Origin: a virus
Lineage: Duplodnaviria > Heunggongvirae > Uroviricota > Caudoviricetes
Virus record (IMG/VR): IMGVR_UViG_2851976983_000003
Strand: one strand, 5' to 3'
DNA length: 45,144 nucleotides
The notes under the pieces were generated by a model. The model had not been told where the DNA came from. It saw only the letters and a list, made by a program, of their open reading frames with translations, and did no database searches. Shown here in pieces: positions 12,167 through 35,667 of the stretch. A program made the position numbers and the translations under genes. Within the stretch, counting starts at the first letter, position 1. Each line of letters begins with the position of its first letter.

Positions 12167-12808
12167 TCAGCGACCAATCACCACAACCTGACCACCATCC
12201 CCTTCGTCTGCCGTGCTGATCTCCTGAGAAACCACGCGTGACCCCACGCGCATTTCACCGTACAGAACAGGCAGAACATTGCCCTGGGCAACCATGTTAT
12301 CCAGTGAAGAAAAATAGGTGTTCTGTTTGCCGTTATCCGTTGTCTGTGTGCGGGGGGTTTTGGGTTTAGGGGCCAGCATCTGTGCAACACCGCCAAGCGT
12401 CATACTGGCACCGAGAGAAAACAGCAGATTACTCGCCATAATTCCTACCCCCGGCATCCATATAGCAACCGCCATAACAGCCGCCCCCAGCACAGCCTGA
12501 AACACACCGCCACTTTTGGCTCCCGCCAGACGCGGCACGATATGGATCACAGCACCATTTGCCAGCGGTTCATTAAGACGGGCTGATAATTCCGTTTCAC
12601 CTGTATCACGCCCGGCAATGCGTACCTGATACCAGCCGTCGCTCAGCTTCTGACGAAACGCCGGGATCTGCATGGCCAGCGCCCGGATGGCTTCGGCCCC
12701 CGTTTTCACACGCAGATCGATGCGGCGGCCAAATCGTTGTAAATCCCCGTAAAGGCAGATACGTGCCATGCCTGGTGACGCCAGAGGGAGTGTGTGCGTC
12801 GCTGCCAT
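12167..12808 (-). CDS. I: Tail assembly protein I
   Basis: 213 aa, lambda gpI-like. Confidence 0.9.
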   Translation of the reverse strand: MAATHTLPLASPGMARICLYGDLQRFGRRIDLRVKTGAEAIRALAMQIPAFRQKLSDGWYQVRIAGRDTGETELSARLNEPLANGAVIHIVPRLAGAKSGGVFQAVLGAAVMAVAIWMPGVGIMASNLLFSLGASMTLGGVAQMLAPKPKTPRTQTTDNGKQNTYFSSLDNMVAQGNVLPVLYGEMRVGSRVVSQEISTADEGDGGQVVVIGR

Positions 12809-13449
12809 TTGTCGGTATACCTCTCTCGTTTGCTCAGTTGTTCAGGAATATGGTGCAGCAGCTCGCCGTCACCACAGTAAATGGCGGCATGATTCGGCAC
12901 CGATGAACCAAAGCAGCACAGCAGCACATCGCCCGGTTGTGCTGATGACAACGGCACCTGATACAGCCCTGTGGCCTCCAGATTATCCAGATAGAGATTC
13001 TGACCTGATTTCCACCAGTCATCATGTCGGTAAAAATCCGGCAAATCGATACCTGCAAGATGATAGGCATCGCGGAACAGCGTATAACAGTCTGTCACCC
13101 CGTGCTCAAAGCGCCGCCCGGTGAGATGCGGCACACAGCGGAACTTATGAATCACTCCCCGGCAGACCAGCCACCACGGCAAATCACTCTGCACCTGCAG
13201 CCGCCTGTCGGCCTCACTCAGCCAGGGCAGACCAGCGGGGTGGCTGTGGACCAGCGCCACAATCTCACCCTGCATTTCTGCCTGCAGCCAGTCTTCCGGC
13301 GACATACGGAAATACGCCTCCGGCTCACCGGAAATATTCACGCAGGGAAAATATCTTTCCCCCTCCGGCGCTCTCACCACGAAGCCGCACGACTCCGCTG
13401 GCGCACATCGCCGGGCGTGCGCCAGAATCGCTGATTCTGTCTCTGTCAT
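12706..13449 (-). CDS. K: Tail assembly protein K (NlpC/P60 + JAB/MPN-like)
   Basis: Start placed at MTETESAILAHARRCAPAESCGFV by homology with the lambda gpK N-terminus; HSHP metal-binding motif; the ORF track begins 14 codons earlier. Confidence 0.85.
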   Translation of the reverse strand: MTETESAILAHARRCAPAESCGFVVRAPEGERYFPCVNISGEPEAYFRMSPEDWLQAEMQGEIVALVHSHPAGLPWLSEADRRLQVQSDLPWWLVCRGVIHKFRCVPHLTGRRFEHGVTDCYTLFRDAYHLAGIDLPDFYRHDDWWKSGQNLYLDNLEATGLYQVPLSSAQPGDVLLCCFGSSVPNHAAIYCGDGELLHHIPEQLSKRERYTDKWQRRTHSLWRHQAWHVSAFTGIYNDLAAASICV

Positions 13450-30140: not shown

Positions 30141-30522
30141 TGCCGCCACCTCCGCCCCGCAGGCGGGAGAACACACCGGACACCAGCGATGCAATATCCT
30201 GCTGGTGGATGAACGACAGAACCTTCACCGACACCACCGATACCAGCACCGCACACAGCGCATCTGCCGATGTACCGTCATACCCTGTTTTTGATGCAAT
30301 CCAGGCTGACAGCACACGCGCTCCCAGCACGCCGACAATAAACGACACCAGAAAATGCGCCACCACACGCCAGACTGAAAGCGCCTGCGGCATCGTTGCC
30401 ACAAATAACGCCCCGGCGAACGCACCAAACACAATCCCGAAATCCGTTCCGGTAAACAGCCCGTACACCGTCGCCCCACCGAGCGCCGCAGCCGTGCCGG
30501 AACCGGATAAGGGTTCAGACAT
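30130..30522 (-). CDS. Putative holin (multi-TM, Gly/Ala-rich)
   Basis: Start placed at MSEPLSGSGTAAALGG…; several hydrophobic segments; first gene of the lysis cassette. Confidence 0.5.
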   Translation of the reverse strand: MSEPLSGSGTAAALGGATVYGLFTGTDFGIVFGAFAGALFVATMPQALSVWRVVAHFLVSFIVGVLGARVLSAWIASKTGYDGTSADALCAVLVSVVSVKVLSFIHQQDIASLVSGVFSRLRGGGGGNVK

Positions 30523-30539
30523 ACGTTTTTCTCCTGTAA

Positions 30540-30565
30540 ATAAAAAAGGGCCGCCAGCGGCCCGT
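30540..30565 (-). terminator. Rho-independent terminator immediately upstream of the lysis cassette
   Basis: gggccgc-ca-gcggccc hairpin followed on the minus strand by TTTTTTATTT. Confidence 0.6.
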
Positions 30566-30689
30566 AAAAACACCCCGTCAAAGGCACCCGCAGATGCCTT
30601 TTGCGCGGCGTTATTTGATGTGATATGCGCCGGGTGTGGCGAGGATATGAAAAAGGCCCGCCGTAGCGAGCCATGAAAAAAAAATGAAT

Positions 30690-30718
30690 AAAAAAAACCG
30701 CCTGGTGCGGCGGTTAAG
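30690..30718 (-). terminator. Second rho-independent terminator between the tRNA array and the holin
   Basis: aaccgcc-tggtgc-ggcggtt hairpin followed on the minus strand by a long T run. Confidence 0.55.
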
Positions 30719-30990
30719 GATGTATTTCCAGGTTTTGCTTAGTACGCGATTAATCTCAACGTTATTCTGAGCGATGCTTACAACATCGGAATGATGCATC
30801 ACCGACCCTGCCAGGAAATACAAAATCTCCACCGATAATGCACCATTCTGCTGTCGTAAAAAAATCAGCACTGAGGCTACACCTGGCCTCAAATTATAGC
30901 CAGAGAACAGAATGCTTTTTCAAAACAACCTGCTCCCACGTAATAAAAAATACACCAGTGCCGCAATACAATAAGGCTTGTTGCAAATGC

Positions 30991-31065
<75 letters not shown>

Positions 31066-31068
31066 ATA

Positions 31069-31144
<76 letters not shown>

Positions 31145-31146
31145 AC

Positions 31147-31223
31147 TGGACCGCCACCGGGGACTCGAACCTCGCACACTCAACTTAAAGGGTTGACGCT
31201 CTTTCCTGATGAACTGGTGACAG
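31147..31223 (-). tRNA. tRNA-like gene, atypical (anticodon loop CCUUUAA, nominal anticodon UUU; possibly degenerate)
   Basis: 77-nt foldable cloverleaf with encoded CCA, but two G-U pairs in the acceptor stem, C at position 8, C at position 33 and an A-C mismatch in the T stem. Confidence 0.45.
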
Positions 31224-31224
31224 T

Positions 31225-31300
31225 TGGTGGCCCTTGCTGGATTTGAACCAGCGACCTGGCGATTATGAGTCGCTCGCTCTCACCACTGAGCTAAAGGGCC
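31225..31300 (-). tRNA. tRNA-Ile2/Met-type (anticodon CAU; ileZ/ileX-like)
   Basis: 76-nt cloverleaf, acceptor ggccctt/aagggcc, anticodon loop ctcataa, T-loop ttcaaat, CCA. Confidence 0.8.
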
Positions 31301-31349
31301 GGGAGCAGAATAATAATGGTGCGTAATTAATTCTGCAATCTCATCCGTT

Positions 31350-32399
31350 TCAAACGATTAAATCCTGAACTTCCCTGACTGTCTGTTCAAAACGTCCTGT
31401 CTCCAGCTCAACACCAATCGCACAACGCCCCAGTGCCATCGCCGCTTTTACCGTTGAACCTGAACCCATAAAAAAATCTGCAACCAGGTCTCCCGGACGA
31501 CTGCTCGCGTTGATTATCTGCTGCAGCATTTCTGCCGGTTTTTCGCACGGATGTTTCCCTGGATAGTACTGCACCGGTTTATGCGTCCAGACATCGGTGT
31601 ACGGAACCTGCGCCGTCACACCGAAATACCGCCGCAAATTTTTATATTCACTCAGCAATTCCGTATACTGCCGGTTCAGCTCACTGTATGTGCTGACCAG
31701 CTGGTGGTGTGGTTTTTCCAGTTCCCCGCGCTGATGTTTTTCTGCCGCAACACGCGCAAACAACGCCTGCAATTTGTTGTAATCACCCTCGTTCGGTAAC
31801 TGCCACTGACTGGTACCAAACCAGTGCGAAGCCATGTTTTTCTTTCCGGTGGCTTCCGCTATCTGTTTTGACGTTATTCCCAGTGATTTACGCGCATCAC
31901 GAAAGTAAGAAATCAGCGGGGCCATGACGTGCTGTTTTAGCTCGCGCCCCTGTGCCACATAGCCATCATCTTTCGGGCGATACGGTCCCTGATAATGTTC
32001 TGCAAACAGAATGCGCTCTGTTGCCGGAAAATACGCCCGCAGACTTTCCTTATTGCACCCGTTCCAGCGTCCGGACGGCTTCGCCCAGATAATGTGGTTC
32101 AGCACATTAAAGCGCTCACGCATCATGATTTCGGTGTCAGATGCCAGGCGATGACCACAGAACAGGTAAAGACTTCCGGCAGGCTTCAGTACCCGCCAGA
32201 ACTGCGCCAGACACTGGTCCAGCCATTTCAGGTAATCATCGTCGCCCTCCCACTGGTTATCCCAGCCCTCGGGCTTCACTTTAAAGTATGGCGGGTCTGT
32301 GACTATCAGATCGACAGAGTTTTCCGGTAAGGTCTGGATAAATTTCAGGCAATCAGCGTTGATTAACTCACAACTGGATATTTTTACAGTATTAGTCAT
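31350..32399 (-). CDS. Orphan DNA methyltransferase (N6-adenine/N4-cytosine, DPPY motif)
   Basis: 349 aa; IVTDPPYF catalytic motif near the N-terminus and FMGSGST SAM-binding motif near the C-terminus; no adjacent restriction endonuclease gene. Confidence 0.85.
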   Translation of the reverse strand: MTNTVKISSCELINADCLKFIQTLPENSVDLIVTDPPYFKVKPEGWDNQWEGDDDYLKWLDQCLAQFWRVLKPAGSLYLFCGHRLASDTEIMMRERFNVLNHIIWAKPSGRWNGCNKESLRAYFPATERILFAEHYQGPYRPKDDGYVAQGRELKQHVMAPLISYFRDARKSLGITSKQIAEATGKKNMASHWFGTSQWQLPNEGDYNKLQALFARVAAEKHQRGELEKPHHQLVSTYSELNRQYTELLSEYKNLRRYFGVTAQVPYTDVWTHKPVQYYPGKHPCEKPAEMLQQIINASSRPGDLVADFFMGSGSTVKAAMALGRCAIGVELETGRFEQTVREVQDLIV

Positions 32400-32549
32400 A
32401 GATCAATAAGCACTTCTCTGATAGGCTCATACTGCTTTTGCGCAAAGCAGATGGGCCTGAGGTTTGCTTGTGACCCCAACGCATGAGCAGATGGCTGGCA
32501 GGTGCCGCTAACACCCACCAGCCGCCCATTACCACAAATTAAAAAGCCT

Positions 32550-32747
32550 TCACTGCAGAAGGCGTCTGTAACAACCGAACTGATAATCTGCCAGACCCGC
32601 CATAACAAGCTGGGTCAGGATTAACTGGCAGCGTTCGCGTGAAAGGTAAGTATTCTGCGCAATTTCCCCGACGGTCGCCGGTTCGGTGACGCTTAATTCA
32701 TTAAACACCACTCTGGCGGTTTCGGTCATATCCTGCTGTTTTAGCAT
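32550..32747 (-). CDS. Hypothetical small protein (possible winged-helix/HTH)
   Basis: Start placed at MLKQQDMTETARVVFNELSV…; short ORF upstream of the methyltransferase; function unknown. Confidence 0.35.
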   Translation of the reverse strand: MLKQQDMTETARVVFNELSVTEPATVGEIAQNTYLSRERCQLILTQLVMAGLADYQFGCYRRLLQ

Positions 32748-32966
32748 GTCTTTTTCCCTTTTCTGGTTAACGTGACATACCAATAACTCTTGTCTAAAAA
32801 GCCAGCAAGCTGAAAGACCGGTATTCGCAACCACCAGCGCGTTTAACGTACTGCATCAATTTTCGAGCATAAAAAGACCGCCTGAGGGCAGCCTTTTTAC
32901 ATTAAAATTAAGTTTTCTTTAACTATGTTGTATGTGAAATTAGCATTCCCTACTGAGTTTATACAA

Positions 32967-33710
32967 CTAATCTGACGTCACACGCACCATTATACTTACT
33001 AAAGAAAAGTCATCATCAGGTCCGGCTCTCTCTATACGACGCAAAATGCCATTAGAAAACTTCTGACTATTACTCATCGTATTTGATGTAAATCTGGGGC
33101 GTTTTTCCCAAACGTTATGAACCCCATCAGACATGATACACAGATGATATACCCCGTTAATACTAGGTAAATCTTTCCATGTGATAAAATCACAGTCGTA
33201 TTCCATATCAACATTTGAGGCTATAGCCGTCGTTAAGATATTTTTGCCCGGTTTATCCTTCAAATCTCTGGGTTTAAAAATATTCTGATCAATTAGCATC
33301 TGATGCCTGGTATCGTCCTTCGTCAATTGGTATGCTTTCTTCTCTCCAATGCAATACAAACGACAATCACCAATATGACCAATAATAATTCCGCTATCAC
33401 AAACATAACAAAACGTAAGTGTAGTAGCAGCTTTATCGAACTCATCATTAACATCAGCTAACGACATAACCTTTCGCTTAACTTCATCAAATACATCCGG
33501 AACTGTGTCAAAAGATAAGCTTGTCAATGCTGAAAGTTCAGCAATTGCCATTGATGAAGCCTGACTGGCACCAGTGTATGAACCTACACCATCAGCTACG
33601 GCAAATAAGATGCCATCCCCTACAATTTTGGGAGGAAGCAATGAATCTTCGTTGACCCTACCTGGTTCTTTTGGATACGAGAATGATGAAGTCGCTATCA
33701 GCTGAATCAT
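32967..33710 (-). CDS. PP2C-family Ser/Thr protein phosphatase
   Basis: 247 aa; PP2C motifs AVADGVGS, GDCRLY, SDGV and a C-terminal acidic DDD cluster; start ATG overlaps the kinase stop (ATGA). Confidence 0.8.
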   Translation of the reverse strand: MIQLIATSSFSYPKEPGRVNEDSLLPPKIVGDGILFAVADGVGSYTGASQASSMAIAELSALTSLSFDTVPDVFDEVKRKVMSLADVNDEFDKAATTLTFCYVCDSGIIIGHIGDCRLYCIGEKKAYQLTKDDTRHQMLIDQNIFKPRDLKDKPGKNILTTAIASNVDMEYDCDFITWKDLPSINGVYHLCIMSDGVHNVWEKRPRFTSNTMSNSQKFSNGILRRIERAGPDDDFSLVSIMVRVTSD

Positions 33711-34471
33711 GACTCACTCCTTAAAAAAGAATGCACAAAATCAAACGCCACATCATCTATTGTCTGATATCTATCATCTTTATCCATCCTGGTACACTTC
33801 GCTATGATAGGCTTTATTTTTTTATCATCTAAATTTAAGTCCTCAATTAACCGCCCCACCGCATAAACATCAGTCTTAACTGAATACTCGGCATTATATA
33901 AAATCTCGGGAGCCATATATCTTGTACTTCCCATACGGGTACCGATCTCGGTCAATTTAGTGGTATCCCCTTCGGGATTTGTATCTTTTACCAGACCAAA
34001 ATCAGACACCTTGTATGTTCCGTCGCTAAATCGCAAGACATTAAATGGTTTTATATCTCTGTGTAAATAGCCTTTCGCATGGATGTGAGCTACACCATCT
34101 AATACCATTTTCACTATTGAAATTTTTTGATCTGTTGTAAGAAGGTTGTTCGTTATTTCGTGCTCAAGATCACATTCTGCTTTATCCATAATGAACCATG
34201 GATTCTCGGCAAACAAATCGCACAAATAAATAGGAACAATATTGCTATGTACGCAATGTGATTGATACACGACCTCCCTTTTAAAACGCCTTCTAAACTG
34301 CTCTATTTGCGCCAAAAGCTCTGGTTTTTCGGGGGCTAAAACCTTTCTAGCATAATCCCCACATTCACCCTTGTTGAGGTTGTAAACCTTAACGTGTTCA
34401 ACAAAGCCAAATGCACCCCTTCCAATCAACTGAATTCGTTTTATAAAGTAATTACCGTGCTGTTCTTCCAT
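33707..34471 (-). CDS. Hanks-type (eukaryotic-like) Ser/Thr protein kinase
   Basis: Complete catalytic motif set: G-loop GRGAFG, lysine in YARKV, HRDIKPFN catalytic loop, DFG, APE (YMAPE), DVYAVG. Start placed at MEEQHGNYF; the ORF track starts 25 codons upstream. AT-rich. Confidence 0.85.
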   Translation of the reverse strand: MEEQHGNYFIKRIQLIGRGAFGFVEHVKVYNLNKGECGDYARKVLAPEKPELLAQIEQFRRRFKREVVYQSHCVHSNIVPIYLCDLFAENPWFIMDKAECDLEHEITNNLLTTDQKISIVKMVLDGVAHIHAKGYLHRDIKPFNVLRFSDGTYKVSDFGLVKDTNPEGDTTKLTEIGTRMGSTRYMAPEILYNAEYSVKTDVYAVGRLIEDLNLDDKKIKPIIAKCTRMDKDDRYQTIDDVAFDFVHSFLRSES

Positions 34472-34544
34472 TAAGCTCACCGACCTAAATTGTAAGAATA
34501 TCCATATCTTACAACTACAGATAAAAAGGTCCACAGAGTTAAGC

Positions 34545-34569
34545 AAAAAACCCGCATTTAAGCGGGTTT
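34545..34569 (-). terminator. Rho-independent terminator just downstream of the Q-like gene (tR'-like candidate)
   Basis: Minus strand aaacccgc-ttaaat-gcgggttt followed by TTTTGCTT. Confidence 0.55.
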
Positions 34570-34615
34570 ACACACTATACGGCAAAATATCACATTTACA
34601 TAAAATGTATGCGAT

Positions 34616-35311
34616 TTAATTGACTTTTGCAATATCTCGTCGTGAAAAGGTCGCTTTTTGTTGCGATCTCATTTTCACGGTGCAAATCAAGGATTCTGTA
34701 TCGAGTTTCTTAAAAATGTCGCACATCTCACGCCAGTAGTTCGCATAATTATGGCTCCAGTTGTCAGGCTTAACTCCACACAGTCTGGCAAGTTCCTGTC
34801 GCTGGTAGACGTCACGCCCAGTAATCCTCCCCCTGACATCCTGCGCCGCCAGCCAGATTAATTTCTTCAGACGCTCAAGCGTTTTCCCTGTAATTTTTCT
34901 GGTGCCAAAATGCACCTGAAACTTATCCCACGCCCATTTCGCAATGACCACCTGATAATCCCAACTCGGATTTTCACTGTATACCCACAGCACCCACGCC
35001 TTCTGATGCTCTTCAAGAGACAGAACGGCGCGTCGCCATGATGATGTCGAAAACTCAACCGGACTGACCAGGGCAATTGATGAACCTTTCGCCAGCGATT
35101 GCTTTCCCGGGATTGGTGGATTATCCCGCGTTATCATTTTTCCAGTCACTTCATCGCGGTACCGGATTTTTTTACGCCTGTAACGCCCTGTATCGAACAT
35201 GGCATTCTCTTGCCAGGCTTCAAGCTGACCTTTTGTTGCCCCACTCAAATCAGCGGTGGCGATAATGAGCTGCTCACGCACAAACTGTAAATACTGGTTA
35301 TTCATGCGCAC
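34616..35311 (-). CDS. Putative late-gene antiterminator (Q-like), assigned mainly by position
   Basis: 231-aa basic protein immediately downstream of rusA and upstream of a terminator and the late region, the position Q occupies in lambdoid phages; no motif confidently recognised. Confidence 0.45.
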   Translation of the reverse strand: MRMNNQYLQFVREQLIIATADLSGATKGQLEAWQENAMFDTGRYRRKKIRYRDEVTGKMITRDNPPIPGKQSLAKGSSIALVSPVEFSTSSWRRAVLSLEEHQKAWVLWVYSENPSWDYQVVIAKWAWDKFQVHFGTRKITGKTLERLKKLIWLAAQDVRGRITGRDVYQRQELARLCGVKPDNWSHNYANYWREMCDIFKKLDTESLICTVKMRSQQKATFSRRDIAKVN

Positions 35312-35667
35312 TCCAGTTCTGTGATTTTTATCCCCAGCCGCCCACCAGGAACGAGCTGACCGCGCACAATATTGATTTCATCAAACTGCTCGTCGTCTAT
35401 GAGAAGTCCGGCATGCGTCAGCGCATCCAGTGGTGCTTTCAGGATATTGTCCAGGTCACGACGACGTTTATCCGGTGGCTCTGCAATAATCTTTATCACC
35501 AGCCGTCCGGACAGGTTTAATTTCAGTCGCTGCTGGCGAACAATAAGCGCCACATCACGGCGATAACGCTCACCGGCTTTTGATACAAAATATGTGCTGC
35601 CACGACGTCGCCAGTAAGTGTTCACCGTTGGCGGGTAAGGCAAAACAAATTCTATGCGTTCAGTCAT
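35302..35667 (-). CDS. rusA: Holliday junction resolvase RusA
   Basis: 121 aa; YPPTVNTYW and DLDN motifs characteristic of RusA. Confidence 0.85.
   Translation of the reverse strand: MTERIEFVLPYPPTVNTYWRRRGSTYFVSKAGERYRRDVALIVRQQRLKLNLSGRLVIKIIAEPPDKRRRDLDNILKAPLDALTHAGLLIDDEQFDEINIVRGQLVPGGRLGIKITELECA

Follow-up and report, generated by a model that had tools for sequence, protein, structure and literature searches.

We analysed a 45,144-nucleotide stretch of Caudoviricetes DNA (IMG/VR record IMGVR_UViG_2851976983_000003, referred to as the window), a lambda-like and apparently intact prophage, with a focus on an orphan DNA methyltransferase gene and the sequence that precedes it. The gene lies on the minus strand in the stretch between the antitermination gene Q and the lysis genes, where Pfam and tRNA calls gave the order Q, kinase, PP2C phosphatase, small open reading frame (ORF), methyltransferase, three tRNAs, two holins and an M15 endolysin. 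An earlier note, made from the sequence alone, had described an orphan DPPY methyltransferase in the late region between a kinase cassette and the tRNAs. Both parts of this description were borne out: Pfam and sequence motifs identified the methyltransferase downstream of Q, no nuclease or restriction enzyme was found among the neighbouring ORFs scanned against Pfam, and the kinase and PP2C genes lie upstream and the three tRNAs downstream. What that note missed were the non-coding parts of the locus, namely a terminator hairpin that spans the stop codon of the small ORF and a conserved leader of 137 nt. The methyltransferase and the elements upstream of it are as follows.

31350..32399, minus strand: M.EcoGII-family beta-class N6-adenine DNA methyltransferase, 349 amino acids (Pfam, M.EcoGII alignment, motifs and PADLOC)
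32400..32536, minus strand: conserved structured non-coding leader, 137 nt (alignments and folding)
32401-32411, minus strand: 3′ arm of leader helix P4, adjoining the AUG
32423-32458, minus strand: HP-B, second leader hairpin
32466-32475, minus strand: 5′ arm of leader helix P4
32482-32530, minus strand: HP-A, long leader hairpin (helices P1/P2)
32536..32563, minus strand: intrinsic-terminator-like hairpin with U-tract, GCCTTC-TGCAGT-GAAGGC TTTTTAATTT (terminator scan and sequence)
32550..32747, minus strand: small ORF, 65-amino-acid winged-helix-type protein, phrog_331
32772..32809, minus strand: conserved block upstream of the small ORF, CTTGCTG-N10-CAGAGTTAYMTGTRTGTCAC (alignment)

The methyltransferase matched the Pfam family N6_N4_Mtase (PF01555) over residues 29-340 (E = 2.1e-44; score 152.5 bits, cut-off 26.7) and the PADLOC model MTase_II PDLC03265 (E = 4e-159). 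Its DPPY motif at residues 35-38 precedes FMGSG (FxGxG) at residues 310-314, which is the beta-class order, with a variable central region between the two. Alignment to M.EcoGII, also of 349 amino acids, ran end to end with 316 identities in 350 positions, central region included, and two gap positions; the M.EcoGII sequence came from a supplementary table of the SUPREM study (PMC11551740) that was machine-read with evident errors, and the gap positions are probably reading errors in this source, the true identity being slightly higher. Its identity is 85% to Anc291 and 71% to SUPREM, both of them reconstructed relatives in which non-site-specific activity was found experimentally to persist (PMC11551740). 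Phage 1720a-02 was matched directly; Murray et al. (2018, PMC5778455) name this phage as a carrier of a very similar methyltransferase, and its small ORF, leader and tRNA neighbourhood are the same as those of the window. The relatives among the matches listed in a profile search of viral contigs were all at least 90% identical. On these comparisons we assign the gene to the M.EcoGI/M.EcoGII family, a known and characterised kind of enzyme. A PDB sequence search found no solved structure of this family, its matches being motif-level only; the two conserved halves of the protein align separately to M.RsrI, CcrM and 8urk. We also noted a stretch resembling a helix-turn-helix (HTH) at residues 165-193 of the central 'target recognition' region (31821-31907, minus strand; LGITSKQIAEATGKKNMASHW), which matched a PHROG family of transcriptional regulators weakly (E = 0.0064).

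M.EcoGII is a beta-class enzyme from a prophage of E. coli O104:H4 C227-11 that methylates adenine in every context, reaching up to 99% of deoxyadenosines in vitro and 86% in vivo when expressed from a plasmid, and that also acts on single-stranded DNA, RNA and DNA:RNA hybrids (PMC5778455). It is silent in its native lysogen, and clones that express it constitutively are sick (PMC5778455). Homologues from O111 Shiga toxin-producing E. coli (approximately 93% similarity) are listed as "nonspecific" and gave no signal in lysogen methylomes. A literature search returned no relevant study of M.EcoGII expression in induced lysogens. The enzyme is sold commercially and used in chromatin and RNA footprinting, and as an enzyme the window protein adds nothing new. 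Because it is approximately 90% identical to M.EcoGII, this allele is likewise expected to be indifferent to adenine context. For the same reason two checks proposed in the earlier note cannot serve: a REBASE comparison has no target specificity to return for a family that methylates adenine in any context, and the lack of a new methylation motif would not refute activity, since a non-specific enzyme gives no motif and the appropriate readout is the global N6-methyladenine content of virion DNA. For annotators and methylome studies, this means that there is no motif to seek from genes of the M.EcoGII type and that 'no motif' should not be read as 'inactive'. The protective role against host restriction that the note favoured is the one that the characterisers of M.EcoGII proposed for the family (PMC5778455), with the qualification that the family methylates adenine in any context.

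The small ORF could be read in two ways, as a 94-amino-acid GTG-started frame (32550..32834, minus strand) or as 65 amino acids from an ATG at 32747. The longer frame is an over-extension and the ATG is the real start, because RefSeq calls it on identical DNA of E24377A and because the N-terminus MLKQQDMTE is conserved: homologues in other genera all begin with it, behind an AAGG/AGGT Shine-Dalgarno sequence, and sequence farther upstream is not alignable as coding. The earlier suggestion of a possible HTH finds some support, in a product of 65 rather than 94 residues. The product matched Pfam TrmB at E = 0.0057 (16.9 bits, under the cut-off of 25.6), a few homologues carry PF17782, and searches of PADLOC and NCBIfam gave no match. 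Its AlphaFold model is a three-helix bundle with a mean predicted local distance difference test (pLDDT) score of 72.5, and Foldseek aligned this model to winged-helix domains of IclR/Rrf2/MarR regulators at template modelling (TM) scores of 0.55-0.70 with E-values that were not significant, the best being an IclR-type winged-helix domain (E = 0.064, TM 0.70). The modelling is consistent with a generic winged-helix fold. The small ORF matched approximately 335 clusters in a database of 5.8 billion proteins, and all organism-named matches were from Enterobacterales.

We compared gene neighbourhoods in 80 GTDB species-representative loci, with methyltransferases 56-91% identical and a range from Escherichia to Proteus, Xenorhabdus and Gilliamella, and in 80 IMG/VR loci. 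A homologue of the small ORF lies directly upstream of the methyltransferase in 58/80 and 73/80 of these, respectively, and a kinase or PP2C gene co-occurs in 1-2 of the 160. The gene content between Q and the small ORF is also variable: phiP27 has a GIY-YIG nuclease there, Stx2a_WGPS2 has two opposite-strand ORFs, the window has the kinase and PP2C genes, and 1720a-02 has no gene in this place; the Q type too varies between these phages. On the strength of these counts and of this variable content, the small ORF is part of the methyltransferase module and the kinase/PP2C cassette is a separate insertion in a variable slot between Q and that module, which overturns the earlier idea that the small ORF might belong with a kinase/phosphatase moron. 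The block of 38 nt that lies 25-62 nt upstream of the small-ORF ATG in the window is conserved throughout the genera, Escherichia, Xenorhabdus and Proteus included. It reads TTGCTG-17 nt-TAYMTG, which is not canonical for sigma-70, and also has an invariant AGAGTTA; a consensus RNA fold sought in it gave 0 pairs. The block may be a weak promoter at best; an operator is equally possible, and an activator-dependent promoter is a further possibility.

The terminator-like hairpin at 32536-32563 contains the TGA stop codon of the small ORF, and its 5′ arm is coding sequence. Across genera the 3′ arm co-varies with this coding 5′ arm (CTTC/GAAG, CTCC/GGAG, CGCC/GGCG and TGCC/GGCA), and by this covariation the stem is under selection. 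The U-tract is good in E. coli phages, and the covariation of the arms suggests readthrough that is coupled to translation.

Between this hairpin and the methyltransferase start codon lies the leader, which is more conserved than either flanking gene. Its mean pairwise nucleotide identity was 82%, compared with 72% for the methyltransferase coding sequence, and was the higher of the two in 95% of 150 random pairs. The leader has a minimum free energy z-score of -3.95. In an alignment of 43 distinct sequences, the consensus structure derived from these same sequences had 93.7% of cells paired, compared with 30-44% with slid partners; ten pairs were changed on both sides, and 0 of 500 shuffles reached the observed counts. 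Helix P4 (GGUCAcAAGC with GCUUacUGAUC) surrounds HP-B, with a single base left between its end and the AUG, and multiple compensatory changes were found in HP-A and P4 of Proteus and Gilliamella. From the small ORF/hairpin to the methyltransferase AUG, Enterobacteriaceae have a distance of 147-154 nt, and Proteus and Morganella have one of 138-142 nt; in Xenorhabdus and Photorhabdus, where most loci have 76-101 nt, HP-A is kept and the 3′ part of the leader is shorter. A 21-nt leader string has 79 testable occurrences in IMG/VR, and in 77 of these the methyltransferase comes next at the expected distance. Both exceptions (L101, approximately 1700-2082; L139, approximately 12800-13200) have a leader cut just past HP-A and a 237-amino-acid ORF in place of the methyltransferase; each is a case of a recombination breakpoint inside the leader.

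The leader has no conserved reading frame on either strand. A 47-amino-acid ORF in the spacer was rejected as a gene, its frames and stops shifting among homologues with frame-shifting indels in 1720a-02 and WGPS2. An antiterminator RNA of nut-like (boxA/boxB) or HK022 put-like type was also set aside, as the order of elements does not fit and the boxA-like string is not kept in Proteus. Rfam 15 returned only tRNAs at E≤1 in 30400-35400, and 32380-32600 searched alone gave chance-level matches (E 4.7-8.9); a full-text search with four leader sequence strings found no open-access paper containing any of them. As far as these searches reach, the leader and the stop-codon hairpin are undescribed. 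We consider the leader a candidate cis-regulatory RNA that may control a toxic enzyme.

The transcriptional setting of the module is given by the remaining features of the stretch from Q to the first tRNAs.

34616..35311, minus strand: antitermination protein Q (Pfam Phage_antiter_Q, E = 4e-84)
34545..34569, minus strand: terminator-like hairpin 47 nt past the Q stop codon, candidate tR' (terminator scan; tR' a putative assignment)
33707..34471/34546, minus strand: Ser/Thr kinase
32967..33710, minus strand: PP2C phosphatase
32871..32893, minus strand: terminator-like hairpin after the PP2C gene (read from sequence and alignment; not called by the terminator scan)
31225-31300, 31069-31144 and 30991-31065, minus strand: three tRNAs 3′ of the methyltransferase
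31225..31300, minus strand: first tRNA past the methyltransferase, anticodon CAU, in a conserved block common to Shiga toxin (Stx) phages

Farther downstream on the same strand lie Nu1, the gpA terminase, a lambda-type portal, an S49 protease, the tape measure and J. At the position equivalent to the 32871..32893 hairpin, phiP27, 1720a-02 and Stx2a_WGPS2 have AAACCCGCCGC..GGCGGGTTTTTTT. The segment 34580-34632 (minus strand), which covers the 3′ end of Q and approximately 35 nt past its stop codon, is conserved among phages with the same Q type, and contains TTGCAA-17 nt-TACATT followed by a TATAGT element and a terminator, a plausible candidate for a pR'/pause/tR' arrangement. A sigma-70 scan gave no promoter call after Q, within the conserved 38-nt block or within the leader.

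The 1485 bases from 31350 to 32834 share 100% identity with prophage DNA of enterotoxigenic E. coli, including E24377A, and as a query matched 2872 of 5426 complete E. coli genomes. The DNA is also 83-91% identical to the Q-stx segment of phiP27 and many Stx2 phages, and phage 1720a-02 was matched as well. In Stx phages the methyltransferase module lies directly upstream of the toxin genes in the same late transcript. In the window, the slot that holds stx in phiP27 and Stx2 phages (30548-30715, minus strand) has three terminator-like hairpins in tandem between the tRNAs and the first holin, and just an 86-amino-acid hypothetical ORF called by RefSeq. The CAU tRNA was called Met by ARAGORN, and appears as tRNA-Ile (ileZ-like, presumably lysidine-modified) in RefSeq and Stx phage records. 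The kinase and PP2C stretch (32967-34546, minus strand) is low in GC (0.39-0.41), and the kinase matched the PADLOC anti-phage kinase models mad6 (E = 1e-39), PD-T4-6 (E = 1e-34) and Stk2 (E = 5e-28); PADLOC gave no match for the PP2C protein. This low-GC insert is probably a prophage defence moron.

The explanation that we consider probable as a whole is that the gene encodes a non-specific methylase of the M.EcoGI/II type, that it is expressed late under Q, and that phage DNA is hypermethylated before packaging, with control after initiation by the hairpin and leader as a hypothetical addition. The enzyme would move methyl groups from S-adenosylmethionine (SAM) to the N6 of adenine in essentially any context. 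Because the gene shares its strand with Q and with the lysis, packaging and morphogenesis genes, lies between them and has at least three terminator-like hairpins ahead of it, it is expected to be silent in the lysogen; transcription would reach it only after induction, when RNA polymerase modified by Q passes the hairpins at 34545-34569, 32871-32893 and 32536-32563. Replicating phage DNA would then be hypermethylated before it is packaged, and progeny may thereby be protected in the next host from many restriction systems that are adenine-sensitive, as the characterisers of M.EcoGII proposed. The module so defined runs from the promoter/operator-like block through the 65-amino-acid winged-helix ORF, the stop-codon terminator and the 137-nt leader to the methyltransferase and the ileZ-like tRNA. 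Within it, the hairpin and leader could add a layer of control above Q: a ribosome terminating at the TGA would melt the hairpin and so couple transcription of the methyltransferase to translation of the small ORF, and the leader fold, through P4 beside the AUG, might limit or time translation of the enzyme. More tentatively, and as a possibility that we would not yet favour, the leader may represent a kind of cis-regulatory RNA that has not been described before and that serves M.EcoGII-type genes only; it would then make up, with the terminator and the winged-helix ORF, a multi-layer gate confining a context-independent, toxic methylase to brief expression late in the lytic cycle.

Several observations weigh against this explanation or parts of it. 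The pR' promoter could not be placed with confidence, the promoter scan being empty just downstream of Q. The U-tract of the stop-codon hairpin is poor in many genera other than Escherichia and absent in Proteus. The methyltransferase start has no recognisable Shine-Dalgarno sequence, and the predicted unpaired probability of the start region was 0.39 compared with 0.47 in upstream-shuffled controls (lower in 32 of 43), by which modelling sequestration of the ribosome-binding site by the leader is weakly supported. Approximately 34 residues differ from M.EcoGII, many of them in the central region, and the reference sequence is the error-bearing table entry, so retained non-specificity of this allele is an extrapolation. 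The anti-restriction role is a proposal for every member of the family, and the SUPREM authors state that the biological function of the family is not known (PMC11551740). Finally, 13 species-representative loci keep the leader and methyltransferase with unrelated genes in place of the small ORF; since the leader persists there, the small protein is not an obligatory partner.

The last point bears directly on an alternative that we regard as somewhat unlikely, in which the winged-helix protein is a dedicated regulator of the methyltransferase, acting either like Com, as a binder of the leader RNA that opens the start site, or like a C protein, as a binder of the upstream block that times transcription. 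The tight gene order with constant spacing in Enterobacteriaceae, held from Escherichia to Proteus, would fit such a regulator, as would the conservation of the 38-nt block just upstream of the ORF in all genera, the predicted fold of a nucleic-acid-binding type and the toxicity of the enzyme encoded downstream. Besides its replacement in the 13 loci, however, the protein has no zinc-finger cysteines of the Com type, is not Xre-type and lacks a PADLOC or NCBIfam match, and no dyad-symmetric repeat resembling a C-box was seen in the 38-nt block.

We consider it improbable that the spacer is conserved as a DNA-level element, that is, a promoter/operator or a recombination 'linker', rather than as an RNA structure. 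Lambdoid mosaics share boundary sequences, many leader columns are invariant and therefore uninformative on pairing, and 'TGTG(N)AAAT' at the 5′ edge of the leader resembles an extended -10 element. Against such an element stand compensatory double changes, which three of the four helices show (for instance, Proteus has GACTGTAAAAGTG/CACCTTTACAGTC and Gilliamella has GACTGATACATG/CATGTAGCAGTC in place of GGCTGGTGGGTG/CACCCGGCCAGCC); moreover, the conserved -11 A is missing from the -10-like hexamer of many members, and a constitutive promoter in the spacer would be at odds with the reported silence in lysogens (PMC5778455).

It appears very improbable that the enzyme is a sequence-specific orphan methyltransferase guarding the phage against a single cognate restriction specificity, in which case induction would yield a new motif. 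Most beta-class N6_N4 methyltransferases are site-specific, including those of the nearest solved structures, and M.PflMI, the nearest relative of the clade with site specificity, has CCANNNNNTGG as its recognition site. Identity to the best PDB matches (8urk/9c3u, M.RsrI, CcrM and M.MboIIA) is, however, confined to the catalytic and SAM motifs, M.PflMI is only approximately 27% identical to M.EcoGII (PMC11551740), and the window protein is nested between M.EcoGII and the non-specific reconstructed ancestors. Least probable of all is that the physiological substrate is RNA, or the host chromosome with the enzyme as an epigenetic factor of lysogenic conversion, rather than phage DNA, since the methylation of single-stranded RNA and DNA:RNA hybrids by M.EcoGII in vitro (PMC5778455) is set against a weaker activity on RNA that varies approximately 12-fold among relatives and is read by the SUPREM authors as neutral drift of a promiscuous activity (PMC11551740), and against the lack of chromosomal hypermethylation in lysogens with M.EcoGI/II or O111 homologues.

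The in vivo questions that matter for the family are when the enzyme is produced, how its toxicity is contained and whether restriction is in fact defeated. If the multi-layer gate were real, it would explain why genes matching approximately half of complete E. coli genomes have never been seen acting in lysogens. The small ORF, terminator and leader are concrete elements that can be mutated to examine control of expression; the leader, modestly interesting in itself, and the stop-codon hairpin are the part of the locus that is worth following up.

Among known systems, the closest are M.EcoGII and M.EcoGI (PMC5778455), which share with the window enzyme its length of 349 amino acids, beta class, approximately 90% identity over the full length, prophage location and orphan status, and differ from the window allele by its approximately 34 substitutions; the M.EcoGII paper (PMC5778455) describes the enzyme alone and does not mention the small upstream ORF, the stop-codon hairpin or the conserved leader. 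T4 Dam, P1 Dmt and VT2-Sa Dam are likewise phage N6-adenine methyltransferases that come without a nuclease and are presumed to be anti-restriction, but they belong to the alpha or gamma class and act at GATC or similar sites, whereas the M.EcoGII family is beta-class and context-independent. C-protein units of type II restriction-modification systems resemble the module in having a small HTH ORF directly upstream of, and co-oriented with, a gene that is harmful if expressed early, together with a conserved upstream block; C proteins, however, belong to the Xre type, regulate the nuclease and not the methylase, and recognise dyad-symmetric C-boxes; the module showed none of these features. In attenuators of the pyrE/pyrBI type, a ribosome finishing the upstream ORF prevents formation of the terminator hairpin. 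The module is similar in that the stop codon of its upstream ORF lies in or next to an intrinsic terminator, so that coupling of ribosome and polymerase would suppress termination, and differs in that no nucleotide-sensing pause is known for it and the U-tract is poor in many homologues. The com-mom operon of phage Mu offers the nearest parallel in layout: a toxic adenine-modifying enzyme made late under layered control, preceded by an ORF of approximately 60 codons and by mRNA structure beside the start codon. The analogy is one of layout only, as Com, a four-cysteine zinc-finger protein that binds RNA, is encoded by a gene overlapping mom, and Mom is not a SAM methyltransferase, whereas the small protein of the window is a predicted winged helix with two cysteines, separated from the enzyme gene by the hairpin and 137 nt (a gap of approximately 150 nt) and dispensable in some lineages.

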